64,000 nucleotides of DNA from an uncultured Gemmatimonadales bacterium (GCA_963809895.1 CAWELD010000003.1:2624001-2688000); one strand, 5' to 3'; numbered from the stretch's first letter, positions 1 through 26,451 are shown. The notes: generated from the sequence alone by a model not told the origin. Translations and numbers: made by a program.

Positions 1-877
1 CGTCGCCCAGCGACAGGCCGGCGCGGGTGGCCGAGAGCGAGTTGCAGCCGTGGGCGATGTTGGCGAAGGGTCCGCCGTGCACGAAGGCCGGCGTGCCGCC
101 CAGTGTCTGCACCAGGTTGGGATTGACCGCGTCCTTGAGCAGCACGGTCATGGCGCCGGTGGCCTCGAGGCCCTTGGCCCGCACGGCCTCACCGTCCTTG
201 GAGTAGCCCACGATGATGCGCTCCAGCCGGGCGTTCAGGTCGTCGAGGCCGTCGGCCAGGCAGAAGATCGCCATGATCTCCGAGGCCGCCGTGATGACGA
301 AGTTGTCTTGCCGGGGCACGCCGCCGGTGCGACCTCCCAGCCCCACCACCACGGAGCGGAGCGCCCGGTCGTTCATGTCCACGGCCCGGGGCCAGGTGAT
401 CTGGGTGGGATCCAGATTCAGCGAGTTGGGCCGGTACATGTGGTTGTCCAGCATGGCCGACAGCAGCGCGTGGGCCGAGGTGATGGCATGGAGATCCCCC
501 GTGAAATGCAGGTTGATCTCCTCCATGGGCACGACCTGTGACCAGCCGCCCCCGGCGGCGCCGCCCTTGATGCCGAAGACCGGGCCCAGCGACGGCTCCC
601 GCAGGCACAGCACGGGATTGCGCTCCCGCAGCGTCATGGCGTCGGCCAGCCCCACGGCCACCGTGGACTTGCCCTCGCCGGCGGCGGTGGGATTGACGCC
701 TGTGACCAGAACCAGCCGGCCACGCTTGCCCCCCTTCTCCTGCGCCACATCCAGGGGCACCTTGGCCTTGTAGTGGCCGAAGGGCACGATGTCCGCGGCG
801 TCGAGGCCGACGCGCGCGGCGATCTCCTGGATGGGCTTCAGGGTCGCCCCCTGGGCAATCTCGATATCACTCTTCAT
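1..877 (-). CDS. fhs: Formate--tetrahydrofolate ligase (partial, runs off window start)
   Basis: Own translation from ATG 877: [20 protein letters not shown]...[26 protein letters not shown]...[45 protein letters not shown], the classic Fhs signatures. Not in the ORF track because there is no stop inside the window. Confidence 0.96.
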
Positions 878-918
878 GCTGTGGTCCTTTGCGGTGTGGA
901 GACGGTCGCGCTGCGGGG

Positions 919-2145
919 TCAGCCCTCGTAGGCGGCCAACAGCTCCAGCACGTGATCGATGTCGTCTTCGGTGTGGTCGGCGTTGACCTGAGCCCGGATC
1001 TCCTCGTCGCCCCGTGGTACCACCGGGAAGGCCAGGCCCGTGACCAGCACGCCGTTCTCGAACAGATACCGCACCATGTCGCGGGTGCGGCGGGTGTCGC
1101 GGATCATGAGGGGCACCACCGGGTGCTCGCCGGGGATGGTCTCGATCCCCACGCGTCCCAGTCCCTCTTCGAACCGCTTGGTCAGCCCCCGCAGGCGCTC
1201 CAGCAGCGCCACGCCCTCGGGGGAATCCACGATCTCCACGCTCCGCATCGCCGCCCGGGCCTCGCCGGGCGTGATGGGGTTGGAGTAGATGTACATGGGC
1301 GACGATTCCCGGAGGAAGCGCACCACCGAGGGGTTGGAGGCCACGTAGCCGCCGTTCACGCCGAAGGCCTTGCCCAGCGTGCCCACCAGCAGGTCGACGC
1401 CCTCGGCCCCGGTGTATTCTTCGGTGCCCCGCCCGGTGCGGCCGAACGCCCCCACCCCGTGGGAGTCGTCCACCACCAGCACCACGCCCTCGGCGTACTG
1501 GGCGTCGTAGCGGCGGCACAGCGCGGCGATCTCGTCCAGCGGCGCGTGGTCGCCCCGCATGGAGAAGATGCCGTCGGTGACCACCACCGCACGCTCGGCC
1601 TCGCCGGCGTGGCGGTCCAGCGCCCGTTCCAGCGCGTCCATGTCCAGGTGGGGATAGACCTCCTTGTCCATGGGGCGCGCCAGGCGCATGGCGTTGATGA
1701 TGCAGTTGTGGTTCAGCTCGTCGCTGATGAGCACCGTGCCCGACGTCACCAGCGGCACGATGGTGGAGACCACCGTGGCGTAGGCGGACGAGAAGACCAT
1801 GGCCGCCTCGCGCCCGTGAAAGTCGGCCAGGCGGGCTTCCAGCTCGGTGTGCACGTCGTAGGTGCCGCTGATGAAGCGCACCGCGCCGGGACCGGCCCCG
1901 TAGGCCCGGGTGCCCTCTTCTTCGGCCTCCATGACCTCGGGCCGAAGCCCCATCCCCAGATACGAGTTGGAGTTCATGCGGATGAACTCGCGATCTCCCT
2001 GCCCTTCGAGCAGGAAGCGCGGGCCGCGGCTTCCGTGGGCCGGGACAACGCGGGTGACGACGGCTTCCACGCCCTTGGCGGTCCCGGCCTCTTCCAGACC
2101 GGCGACGTGGGCATCGAGCACCGGGCTCAAGCGATTCAGCGGCAT
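919..2145 (-). CDS. kbl: Glycine C-acetyltransferase (2-amino-3-ketobutyrate CoA ligase), PLP class II
   Basis: Motifs [51 protein letters not shown]; adjacent to threonine dehydrogenase. Confidence 0.9.
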
Positions 2146-23380: not shown

Positions 23381-23938
23381 TCAGCGTCTCGCCGCCTGCG
23401 CGACCTCCCGGTCGCTGAGCGCCCGCACCTCGACCCGGGCGGTCCCGGGACCCACCACCCCGAGCTGGCGGGCGGCGGCGTAGGAGAGGTCGATGATGCG
23501 CTCGTCGGTGCGCGCGAAGGGACCCCGGTCGTTGATCCGCACCGTGAGTTGGCGGCCGTTGTCCAGGTTGGTGACCTCCACCCAGGTGTTCAGGGGGAGG
23601 GTGCGGTGGGCGGCGCTGGGACGGTCGGGGTCGAAGATCTCACCGCTGGAGGTGGGGCGGCCCGCGAACTCCTCGCCGTACCAGGACGCGATGCCCCGCT
23701 CACGGTAGCCGTCGGCCTGATCCATGACCTGGTACCGGACCCCGAAGACCTCGTAGGTGCGGCCGGCGTCGGAGGGACCTCCCACCGGAGCTGCGGGGAT
23801 TCCCGCCGGCGAAGGCGCCGTGTCACCGTGACCCGAGGGGTATCCCACCAGGGTGCACCCGGATACGGAGAGCAGCAGCAGGCCGGCAGCCGCCACGCCC
23901 GCTCCCCCTCGTCGTCCGGACCCTCGATGCGTTCCCAT
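23381..23938 (-). CDS. rlpA: Septal ring lytic transglycosylase RlpA family lipoprotein
   Basis: Lipobox VSGC; GIASWYG, SAAHRTLPL, VRINDRGPF, RIIDLSYAAA. Confidence 0.93.
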   Translation of the reverse strand: MGTHRGSGRRGGAGVAAAGLLLLSVSGCTLVGYPSGHGDTAPSPAGIPAAPVGGPSDAGRTYEVFGVRYQVMDQADGYRERGIASWYGEEFAGRPTSSGEIFDPDRPSAAHRTLPLNTWVEVTNLDNGRQLTVRINDRGPFARTDERIIDLSYAAARQLGVVGPGTARVEVRALSDREVAQAARR

Positions 23939-23994
23939 ACTCTCGAAAATGGGAGACGAGCGTTGGCAGGCCAAGCTTTTCCTCGCTCCCCCTG

Positions 23995-24038
23995 AAAACA
24001 CTTGCGGGGAAGGCTGGTCTCCCAGCCTCCCCCGCGAG
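23995..24038 (-). terminator. Rho-independent terminator-like hairpin
   Basis: Minus strand CTCGCGGGGGAGGCTGG-GAGA-CCAGCCTTCCCCGCAAG followed by TGTTTT. Confidence 0.7.
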
Positions 24039-24039
24039 A

Positions 24040-24433
24040 GGAGGAGCGGCCCGGTTCAGTTGGCCTGGGACCCTCCCTTCACCAGACTGGCGTCCCCGGG
24101 ACCGCTCCAGAGCCCTTTGTGTCGGAGCCTTTTCCGCGAGGCCCCTTCGGCGTCGGGCGGGGACTCCGTCCGCTCTGACGCTGCACCATGATACCGGTTG
24201 GCCAGTCCGGATGCTGTCGGGCGCAGCCCCCTTGGTCGTGGGGGGAAGGGGTAAGGCGCCTGTCGGGAAATCCCCCACGCGACGCCTCCCTGAAAACGGC
24301 GACGGCCCGGCGAGCCTGAGCTCACCGGGCCGCAAAGGAGGTCGGGGCCTCCTGCTGGCACCTCACCGCCAAACGCTATCGCCGCGCTTCCGCACGCTCC
24401 CCTGAGGAGAACCCCGACCGGACCTGCGCCTCC
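24040..24433 (-). ncRNA. Large structured ncRNA, raiA-motif-like
   Basis: 5' and 3' ends pair (GGTCCGGTCGGGGTT with AGGCC-AA-CTGAACCGGGCC); blocks GGTGCCAG, CATGGTGCAGC and hairpin+AGGCCAAC appear in the same order as in raiA-motif RNAs (recalled from memory); many internal hairpins; no credible ORF. Confidence 0.65.
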
Positions 24434-24659
24434 CTGGGCGTCCGCACCAGCCGCTCGGAAACGGCCGGGCGCCGGCGCGCGCACTGGGAGTATGTGAAAT
24501 CCACGTTCCGCCGGCTGAATCGCCCGCTGGTGTATCGCAAGAGTGCCATCGTCGTCCTTCCGTTCCGCCCCTCCTCGCACCGGCAGGCCTGGGCTCGATC
24601 CCGCCGGCAGCGGACCCCGTCCGCTTCTCACCACCCTACGGATGGGACGTCGGAAGGAT

Positions 24660-25904
24660 TCACAAGGTTGCCTGCACGCCCTCGCTCTCCAGGATGCCGA
24701 CGATCTCCACCAGGTGCTCCTGGCCCCGGGTCTCCAGAGTGAAGACGATCTCCACGTCGCCCACCGAGATGTCGGCGAAGCCCCGGCGATGGGTGGTCTC
24801 CAGCACGTTGGCGCCGAGCCCGGCCACGATCTTCGTGACGCGCGCCAGCGACCCGGGTCGGTCCGGGACCTTCACCCTGAGGCGAACCAGGCGGCCGTCG
24901 GCCAGGAGCCCGCGGTCGATGATGCGCGAGACGATGTTGACGTCGATGTTGCCGCCGGAGAGCACCAGCACCGCGGTCTCCGTGGGCTTCACGGGCACCC
25001 GTCCGGTGGTCATGGCGGCCAGCGCCACGGCGGCGGCCCCCTCCACCACCGTCTTCTGACGCTCGAGCAGCACCAGGATGGCGCTGGCGATCTCCTCTTC
25101 GGTGACCACCACCAGGTCGTCCACCAGCGCTTCGATCATGGGAAAGGTCAGCTCGCCCACGCGCTTGGTGGCGATGCCGTCGGCCAGGGTGTGGGAGCTC
25201 TGGATCTTCACGATCTCGCCGGCGTCGCGCGACGCCCGCGCCGAGGGCGCGGCCTGGGCCTCCACCCCCACCACACGGAGCTCCGGCCGGTGCGCCTTCA
25301 TGGCCAGGGCGATCCCCGAGATCATCCCCCCACCTCCCACCGGGACCACCACCACCGCCGCGTCGGGCACCTGCTCCAGGATCTCCAGGCCGATGGTACC
25401 CTGCCCCGCGATCACGTGGGGATCGTCGAAGGCCGACACCATGATCAGGCCCTCGTCGGCCTCCAGCCGCCACGCCTCTTCGGCGGCGTCGTCCAGGACC
25501 GTGCCCTTCTGAAGCACCCGGGCGCCGAATCCCCGGGTGTTGGTGACCTTGATGATCGGTGCGGTCTCGGGCATGACCACCGTGCAGGGAATCCCCAGGC
25601 GGTTGGCGTGATAGGCCAGCGCCTGGGCGTGATTACCCGCGCTGGCGGTGACCACGCCGCGCCGGCGCTCGTCGTCGTCCAGGTGCAGGAGCCGGTTCAG
25701 CGATCCCCGGTCCTTGAACGAGCCGGTGCGCTGCAGGTTCTCCAGCTTGAAGTGGAGCCGGCAGTCCACCAGGTCCCGGAACCCCAGGGCCCGGGGCGAG
25801 GGGGTGTGAACGATGTCGTCCGCGATGCGTTCGCGGGCCGCGTCCACGTCGGCCGGCTGCACCGGGAGGGAGGCCACGGCGTCCGGTGCGCGGGAGGGCG
25901 CCAC
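24660..25904 (-). CDS. ilvA: Threonine ammonia-lyase with C-terminal ACT domain
   Basis: KLENLQRTGSFKDRG, SAGNHAQA, PVGGGGMISG, SGGNID, PDRPGSL; start GTG 25904 or 25877. Confidence 0.92.
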   Translation of the reverse strand: MAPSRAPDAVASLPVQPADVDAARERIADDIVHTPSPRALGFRDLVDCRLHFKLENLQRTGSFKDRGSLNRLLHLDDDERRRGVVTASAGNHAQALAYHANRLGIPCTVVMPETAPIIKVTNTRGFGARVLQKGTVLDDAAEEAWRLEADEGLIMVSAFDDPHVIAGQGTIGLEILEQVPDAAVVVVPVGGGGMISGIALAMKAHRPELRVVGVEAQAAPSARASRDAGEIVKIQSSHTLADGIATKRVGELTFPMIEALVDDLVVVTEEEIASAILVLLERQKTVVEGAAAVALAAMTTGRVPVKPTETAVLVLSGGNIDVNIVSRIIDRGLLADGRLVRLRVKVPDRPGSLARVTKIVAGLGANVLETTHRRGFADISVGDVEIVFTLETRGQEHLVEIVGILESEGVQATL

Positions 25905-25908
25905 GGGG

Positions 25909-26451
25909 TCAGCTCCCGCCGGGGCCGCGGGAGCGGTGCATGTAGTGGATGCGCCAGCTCCCGGCGGCGTCCGGTTGCAGCACCAGCGTCTCCACGCCCC
26001 ACCAAGGCACGGACTCGCCGGTGATGGCGGCCCGGTAGCGGAGCATGACCAGACGCACGTCGTCCATCCGGTCCACACGGGTGCCGATGCGCTCCCAGCG
26101 GAGTCCGTTGGGCGCCACGTCCCCCGCCTCCATGGACGAGGGCAGCGGGCCCGTGCCCTGCGCCGACCACAGGACGCCCTCTTCCTGATCCACCAGCAGG
26201 GCGTCGGGCCCGATCAACGAGGCCACGCGCGACGCGTCGCCGGCAGCCAGAGCCTGGTGAAAGGCGTCCACCACCACCATCAGCGAATCCTCGGCCAGCG
26301 CCTCGGCCGAAGGTGCTTCGTCGCCGCCCTCGGCCCCCATACCGGGAAGGTCACCCGAGTCGGCTTCGGCCCGGCGCTCGAAGGTGCATCCGCCCACGAG
26401 CGCGGCCGCCGCGACGACCAGCAGCGGCAGACGGACACGCCGGATGCTCAC
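25909..26451 (-). CDS. NTF2-like (DUF4440-type) lipoprotein
   Basis: Lipobox VGGC; FHQALAAGD..ETLVL..WRIHYMHRS. Confidence 0.7.
   Translation of the reverse strand: MSIRRVRLPLLVVAAAALVGGCTFERRAEADSGDLPGMGAEGGDEAPSAEALAEDSLMVVVDAFHQALAAGDASRVASLIGPDALLVDQEEGVLWSAQGTGPLPSSMEAGDVAPNGLRWERIGTRVDRMDDVRLVMLRYRAAITGESVPWWGVETLVLQPDAAGSWRIHYMHRSRGPGGS

Follow-up and report, generated by a model that had tools for sequence, protein, structure and literature searches.

The spacer between an ilvA-like and an rlpA-like gene in an uncultured Gemmatimonadales bacterium probably encodes a stand-alone small RNA (sRNA) that belongs to a redox or low-oxygen stress regulon and has its own promoter and terminator. 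The stretch analysed comprises 64,000 nucleotides (GCA_963809895.1, CAWELD010000003.1:2624001-2688000), here called the window, and all positions are counted from its first letter. The proposed sRNA gene would run on the minus strand from about 24181 to 23995 and give rise to an RNA of ~187 nt, transcribed from an activator-type promoter. Its functional part would be a conserved 66-nt two-tier hairpin, which displays the Shine-Dalgarno-like word GGGAGGGU in its loop. We regard this RNA as a candidate for a new sRNA family of a familiar kind, narrow in range and so far encountered in two genera.

A conserved two-tier hairpin with an invariant loop

The conserved core occupies 24043-24108 on the minus strand and was recovered in 15 sequences, with covariance-model scores of 34-89 bits. 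Its outer helix, P1, pairs 24096-24108 with 24043-24054 and comprises ~11 base pairs interrupted by a small bulge. P1 is separated from the inner helix P3 of 6 base pairs (24082-24087 with 24063-24068) by an 8x8 internal loop with many conserved purines, some of which might form tandem G-A pairs. P3 is closed by the 13-nt terminal loop UGAAGGGAGGGUC (24069-24081, minus strand), and the octamer GGGAGGGU within this loop is identical in all 15 aligned sequences.

The alignment supports the fold itself: 96.8% of cells in the core are paired, and 13 of the 17 pairs vary on both sides, in 30 cells over the 15 sequences, a count that has to be read with the caveat that the alignment was fitted to the model and that L011 and L030 add 'covariation' by register shift and not by true exchange. 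Shuffled alignments gave 4.9 ± 1.4 such pairs, with none of 500 reaching 13, and slid controls gave no more than 4. Exchanges of entire helices were also observed. In L091, which derives from a genome of the other genus (G122), P1 is wholly exchanged to CACGAG/CUCGUG while GGGAGGGU is retained; in G017, P1b is replaced by CCUCG/CGAGG, and P3 is replaced in both G006 and G017. The G-U pairs and the scores of the reverse strand, ~20 bits versus 78-84 bits, assign the RNA to the minus strand.

Conservation in the core tracks base pairs, not codons, and no coding signal in third-position GC was found in the RNA region. We also considered a peptide encoded by the loop and discarded it, as the 8-codon frame that opens at the loop's GUG is not conserved: its stop is lost in L002, L008 and L010, and its start is lost in L052.

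The motif was found in two genera

When 60 related genomes were searched at the DNA level, the spacer was matched only within 24026-24120, in 10 genomes that all belong to the same genus; besides these, three isolated matches of 25-33 nt were obtained (24589-24619, 24428-24460 and 24255-24279). The covariance model detected the motif in 13 of 20 members of the genus, among them G006 and G017 with diverged copies, and the genome under study has a single copy. A further 150 genomes of the family, which represented 81 genera and were searched with Infernal's stricter filters, gave one clear match (G122, 34.3 bits), and another 150 sampled across the phylum gave nothing above noise. Weak matches of the model in G190, G285 and G303 (E 0.06-0.09) and a 26-bit match within coding-like sequence in G020 were set aside as noise. 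An exact-word scan of genome contigs returned 13 matches, namely 10 in relatives of the genus and three, in Dehalococcoidia, Lawsonibacter and Sandaracinaceae, that we ascribe to chance. In metagenomes, the same kind of scan led to the full motif in only 5 of 21 loci.

A putative tripartite promoter and an intrinsic terminator would delimit the RNA

Upstream of the RNA, all loci that we examined in the two genera carry the same three elements. The distal one is an imperfect palindrome, GTGGGGGATTTCCCGACAG (24260-24278, minus strand), which we presume to be a transcription-factor binding site. Across loci this upstream palindrome is of the type GTGGGGAnnnTCCCCACA, and a GGGGAnnnTCCCCACA-type element is found upstream of the RNA in relatives as well as at the genome's further promoters of the same class (see below). 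The proximal box CCCGACAG (24214-24221, minus strand) lies 21 nt before the third element, a -10 box with the sequence TATCAT (24188-24193, minus strand). The latter fits the TAnnnT found ahead of the tRNA genes of the genome, whose promoters follow the pattern TTGACA-N17-TAnnnT. A regular expression with 21 nt between CCCGACAG and the -10 box (22 nt in L002) fits 12 of 14 loci; by eye, L010 and L052 can be fitted with 22 nt and L091 with 21 nt. Three properties lead us to read the upstream boxes as a promoter and not as a motif of the RNA: the spacing of the boxes is fixed at 21-22 nt, the spacers themselves are unrelated in sequence, and the core begins anywhere from 7 to 94 nt beyond the -10 box, depending on the locus.

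Since CCCGACAG and the palindrome share CCCnACAG, we read CCCGACAG as the proximal half-site of the factor that would bind the palindrome. Transcription would start near 24181, and from this predicted start follows the RNA length of ~187 nt in the window and of 120-210 nt in relatives. Two other promoter types were considered and rejected. The conserved GG-N10-GC of a sigma-54 promoter was not seen by eye in the spacers, and a Bacteroidetes-type TAnnTTTG promoter was dropped in view of the layout of the genome's tRNA promoters.

Between the predicted start and the core lies a variable 5' domain (24109-24181, minus strand), in which the helix P0 (24161-24167 with 24109-24115) encloses a hairpin at 24124-24145. 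P0 was obtained with RNAalifold from six long-form sequences, shows U-A, C-G and U-G exchanges and abuts P1; short-form loci are devoid of this domain.

At its 3' end, the RNA carries an intrinsic terminator (23995-24035, minus strand), which consists of a 14-bp hairpin (24004-24035) followed by a U run (23995-23998) and at which transcription would end. A preliminary description of this region, made from the sequence alone, had marked a terminator-like hairpin here, and we could confirm it (24035-24004 with a T tail) as the sole such site within 23700-24800. In six loci (L004, L005, L006, L010, L052 and L091) the U run directly follows P1 on its 3' side, so that the core itself serves as the terminator hairpin there; in G017 no clear terminator was seen. 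The RNA ends at a terminator of its own and shows no dependence on the downstream gene.

The predicted promoter belongs to a class shared with nirK, Usp and pntA genes

The layout of this promoter class is a palindrome TGTGGGGAnnnTCCCCACA, ~17-19 nt, CCCGACAG, 21 nt and TAnnnT. The full tripartite pattern was found at 8 sites in the genome versus 0 in a reversed-sequence control, and two further near-matches were noted. Sites outside the window are located at C3:690578-690592, C3:2081518, C3:2689326, C3:1952296 and C3:472121, and at C10:1109740, C10:966437 and C10:789389. The genes behind such sites include the copper nitrite reductase gene nirK (TIGR02376, 353 bits, cut-off 296), which stands behind an Rrf2 regulator, a gene for a tandem universal stress protein (Usp), the alpha subunit of a 2-oxoacid:acceptor oxidoreductase (541 bits, cut-off 483) and the transhydrogenase subunit PntA (407 bits, cut-off 383). 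Other sites of the class precede genes for two membrane proteins, one of the DsbD_2 type and one YgaP-like, and for a 148-residue protein without assignment. One perfect palindrome (C3:690578-690592) is flanked by two divergent genes, which encode a PAS-GAF histidine kinase (C3:690649-692910) and an NtrC-type sigma-54 activator (C3:689023-690525). The latter is one candidate for the regulator that would bind the palindrome. Members of the genus that lack the RNA also display the pattern, before the tandem Usp gene in G015 and before the DsbD_2 gene in G009, with one match in each genome versus none in its own control.

The names of the genes behind these sites suggest that the promoter class constitutes a regulon, apparently not described before, for low oxygen, nitrite or redox stress. 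As the promoter of the RNA belongs to the same regulon as nirK, Usp and pntA, such stress would probably induce the RNA. The exposed loop would then act in trans, most likely by pairing with C/U-rich sites of other RNAs; as a less likely mode, it could bind a protein or the 3' end of the 16S rRNA.

The RNA is not tied to the downstream gene rlpA

The preliminary description had allowed for an attenuating leader of rlpA. The element is indeed located on the same strand upstream of rlpA in the window as well as in L003, L005, L006, L010, L052 and L067, and its build, a compact conserved hairpin followed by a terminator, is reminiscent of an aptamer joined to an expression platform. However, rlpA is the next gene in only these 7 of 15 distinct loci, so the position 5' of rlpA that a riboswitch or leader would keep is not constant. 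Five of the 15 loci have a convergent gene next to the RNA, encoding an S9 peptidase (L007, L008, L009 and L011) or a DUF4340 protein (L091), which argues that the RNA is not an rlpA leader. In L004 (genome G003), the gene of an extracytoplasmic function (ECF) sigma factor (619-1200, minus strand) lies between the RNA and rlpA, which identifies the spacer as a site of gene gain and loss within the genus. Furthermore, the rlpA genes of G015, G011 and G008 do without the element: no more than ~110 nt separate ilvA from rlpA in these genomes, and no motif was detected between them with filters off.

The rlpA gene also appears to have a promoter of its own. A promoter-like site follows the terminator of the RNA (23946-23974, minus strand) and reads TTGGCC, 17 nt, CATTTT, 7 nt, ATG; it matches the TTGACA-N17-TAnnnT pattern ahead of the genome's tRNA genes, and a stricter consensus scan did not find it. 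Sites of this type are alike in L003, L006 and L010, with the same layout in L003. Given that the site ends 7 nt before the ATG, the rlpA mRNA of the window is probably leaderless. A conserved alternative antiterminator pairing was not found either. We thus consider it very unlikely that the element controls rlpA as a 5' leader, attenuator or riboswitch.

Observations that weigh against a stand-alone RNA, and the link to ilvA

Small parts of the window are present as contigs in two metatranscriptome runs, X17 and X18. As contigs they carry no information on strand, ends or abundance, and such libraries may contain DNA. In X17, a single contig of 151 nt covers 24023-24172 and thus falls wholly within the predicted RNA, which is weak evidence for an RNA. 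X18 yielded a contig of 109 nt (depth 21), of which an 87-nt piece corresponds to the window (24168-24254) and which meets adapter sequence at 24254; a second X18 contig enters rlpA. No contig of either run lies on 24255-24700, which is not evidence of silence.

Several observations, besides the fitted alignment mentioned above, speak against a stand-alone sRNA of the stress regulon. The first X18 contig crosses the proposed promoter and start. It could represent read-through from ilvA, given that no terminator was found between ilvA and 24035, but also library DNA, duplicates of one fragment or another transcript; equally, the 5' end of the RNA could be further upstream than 24181. The box CCCGACAG lies 4 nt too far upstream of the -10 box for a sigma-70 -35 hexamer, and a consensus scan gave no promoter at the site of the RNA. 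The RNA is always found in the same neighbourhood, which is compatible with a cis role for ilvA. Genes for Hfq and CsrA were not found in the genome, which is 95% complete. Finally, the number of sites complementary to the loop over at least 11 nt, 42, is about what composition predicts by a rough estimate, and the four sites near start codons share no theme (REC-HD, GTPase-like, MacB-like permease and DUF2911).

Alternatively, the element could act in cis on ilvA, as a terminator or a stabiliser of the 3' untranslated region (3'-UTR) that is possibly processed to a 3'-UTR-derived RNA. In 12 of 15 loci, ilvA is the gene immediately upstream of the RNA; in L002, L003 and L030 the available upstream sequence is short or without ilvA. 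The consensus scan found no other terminator from ilvA to 24035, P1 with its U run is a terminator in six loci, and the X18 contig runs across the proposed promoter. A plain terminator, however, requires neither an invariant 8-nt loop word nor conserved bases in an internal loop. A promoter of a defined class with fixed spacing also stands before the RNA in each of the loci examined, in both genera. Moreover, some members of the genus possess ilvA but not the element. We regard a cis element of ilvA as possible but unlikely, and favour the stand-alone sRNA.

The loop as a potential decoy

The word GGGAGGGU is complementary to the 3' end of the genome's own 16S rRNA, GGAUCACCUCCUUUCU. For a duplex of the 21-nt loop region with this 3' end we calculated -18.8 kcal/mol versus -23.5 kcal/mol for a perfect Shine-Dalgarno sequence, a value that includes stem bases which would be paired in the hairpin. 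No conserved start codon was found after the Shine-Dalgarno-like loop. The loop might hence act as a decoy that binds the 16S 3' end on the 30S subunit, or an RNA-binding protein, during stress. Apart from the duplex energy, the conserved purine-rich internal loop with its possible tandem G-A pairs would fit such a role, as it suggests a fixed three-dimensional shape, and so would the lack of enrichment in the target scan. Against a decoy stand the single loop of this kind in the RNA and the CsrA gene that was not found in the genome, in addition to the stem bases counted in the duplex. We therefore judge a decoy to be unlikely. A sponge for CsrA/RsmA in particular was rejected: PF02599 remained unmatched in the 95% complete genome in a search that did detect the positive controls, and the RNA offers only one invariant loop.

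The 390-nt closed fold and the raiA reading

In the preliminary description, the interval 23995-24433 had been seen as a closed structure of ~390 nt and as a divergent, insertion-expanded raiA-motif RNA. Part of its groundwork held. The words and hairpins it listed are found on the minus strand of this interval, the flanking genes are ilvA and rlpA as stated (Pfam), and the ilvA-rlpA spacer does contain an unannotated, structured and conserved RNA on its minus strand, which ends at the proposed terminator and is better explained as a stand-alone RNA than as a protein-coding region.

The closed structure stands as a thermodynamic prediction. The minimum free energy (MFE) fold of 23995-24433 has -246 kcal/mol (z = -4.09), and none of 100 shuffles was as good. 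It includes the long-range closing stem (24413-24433 with 24041-24062), the CUCCU/GGGAG, CGUGC-GGAA-GCGCG and AGGAGG/CCUCCU hairpins, the 14-bp GCGGCCCGGUGAGC hairpin and part of GGGGCCU/AGGCUCC. As a biological structure it does not stand: the 5' 240 nt are lineage-specific, with no counterpart of 24190-24433 found in relatives, and the closing stem conflicts with P1, as its strand CCGGGCCGCUCC (24043-24054) pairs locally with 24096-24108 across the 15 sequences. The GCGUC/GACGC helix is disrupted in a near-identical strain by a natural C>G variant at 24281, which is uncompensated. Homologues and covariation thus support the 66-nt core, in two genera of Gemmatimonadota, and not the 5' half.

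The identification as a raiA RNA was rejected. With Rfam release 15, the whole 64-kb window gave zero matches at gathering score. Under permissive filters (E<=10), the region 23850-24700 returned 13 weak matches, none of them to raiA (RF03072); microRNA, RsmW and BjrC80 matches (11-23 bits, E 0.2-9) were dismissed as hairpin noise. When the RF03072 model (209 positions) was run against the whole genome, the best match reached 10.3 bits, versus a gathering score of 101.3, and lay at an unrelated place (C3:1312321-1312413).

A published account (PMC10861870) gives raiA RNAs a length of ~200 nt, six main helices that covariation supports, two pseudoknots and 51 positions of high conservation. It assigns most of them to Bacillota and Actinomycetota and names the interval between raiA and comFC as their typical place. 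Here we see none of these features. The conserved part is a hairpin of 66 nt with two helices, plus P0 in the long forms, and by eye we saw no conserved pseudoknot partner for the loop. The relatives are metagenome-assembled Gemmatimonadota (Gemmatimonadaceae or Longimicrobiales), and the neighbours are ilvA and, on the other side, rlpA or a gene for an S9 peptidase or a DUF4340 protein. The few short words that resemble those of raiA, as given in the preliminary description, are lost on alignment; one of them, CATGGTGCAGC, overlaps the -10 box TATCAT, and relatives read TATCCTTGTTCAGCC at this place. What the two RNAs have in common is that both are structured, intergenic and non-coding, and the RNA described here would likewise be made as a transcript of its own. 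Even with a closed fold that is better than shuffles, we give the raiA reading practically no credence, and the range of raiA RNA is not extended by our finding in Gemmatimonadota.

Flanking genes and further features of the locus

The upstream neighbour of the RNA is an ilvA-like threonine dehydratase gene (24660-26078, minus strand) with PALP (PF00291, E = 1.6e-81) and ACT (PF01842) domains. Downstream, and separate from the RNA, follows a gene for an rlpA-like lipoprotein (23381-23938, minus strand; DPBB_1, PF03330, E = 4.6e-23). Its open reading frame (ORF) spans 23381-24001, with the ATG at 23938 as the likely start, and a lipobox was also read.

From the ilvA stop to the proposed start of the RNA, the window contains a non-coding spacer of ~470 nt. 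Its larger part, 24279-24659 (minus strand), includes the 5' half of the preliminary structure and has no match in relatives; it is common only to the genome of the window and to a metagenome strain that is 99% identical (L037). In most relatives, the alignment places the ilvA stop 150-250 nt ahead of the conserved block, and we therefore consider 24279-24659 lineage-specific. Repeats of the spacer elsewhere in the genome were not found.

Two features within this spacer deserve mention. The first is an ORF of 57 codons (24376-24549, minus strand), which overlaps the 5' end of the RNA as preliminarily described. It begins with ATG, is preceded by GGAAGGA 6 bases upstream, has a third-position GC of 0.80-0.88 and encodes a very arginine-rich sequence; it matched no Pfam family, and a search among proteins of 31-100 residues gave no homologue. 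The frame could have arisen by chance or could encode a genuine orphan small protein. The second is a GC-rich hairpin of 14 base pairs (24302-24333, minus strand), followed by five bases and then UUUU (24293-24296). It may serve as a weak terminator for ilvA or the 57-codon ORF, and the consensus terminator scan made no call there. Elsewhere in the genome, ARAGORN placed a head-to-tail run of ~17 tRNA genes in a segment of 2 kb (C10:356346-358379), an unusually dense array.

Comparison with known small RNAs and implications

FnrS of Escherichia coli is an sRNA activated by FNR, and DrrS/MTS1338 of Mycobacterium tuberculosis is one activated by DosR. The RNA described here would resemble both as a short, stand-alone RNA that has its own terminator and, in its predicted promoter, the operator of a regulon of the low-oxygen or redox type, here one with nirK, Usp, a 2-oxoacid oxidoreductase and pntA. 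It differs in that it has no likeness to any Rfam family and that no Hfq gene was found. In addition, its conserved unpaired word resembles a Shine-Dalgarno sequence and is rich in G instead of C/U. With CsrB and RsmZ it shares a hairpin loop containing GGA; the match to RsmW is weak and non-significant (16 bits, E = 3.9, gathering score 52), and the RNA has one invariant loop in place of many repeats, in a genome in which no CsrA gene was found. DapZ and MicL are sRNAs derived from 3'-UTRs, which have an internal promoter and share the terminator of the mRNA. Like these, the RNA comes right after a coding gene, ilvA, with no intervening terminator and with a predicted promoter of its own in the 3' region; unlike them, it is set apart, in the window, by the long non-coding spacer between the ilvA stop and the proposed start. 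From raiA RNA it is distinguished by a conserved hairpin of only 66 nt, its occurrence in two Gemmatimonadota genera, its place downstream of ilvA and the lack of a model match.

A literature search for small or non-coding RNAs of Gemmatimonadota, judged by titles, found none. In a bolder form, which we consider unlikely, no regulatory RNA of Gemmatimonadota would have been described before this one. It would represent a new structured class, a Shine-Dalgarno mimic presented by a rigid two-tier hairpin, that belongs to a hitherto undescribed low-oxygen or nitrite regulon with a TGTGGGGAnnnTCCCCACA operator and that uses GGGAGGGU to occupy the anti-Shine-Dalgarno tail or a protein, without Hfq-assisted pairing.

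With its defined boundaries, invariant loop and promoter, the proposed sRNA is a concrete and testable candidate. Gemmatimonadota are a widespread phylum of soil and sediment, and the regulon to which the RNA would belong, united by a shared operator, may govern their switch to a low-oxygen or denitrifying life.

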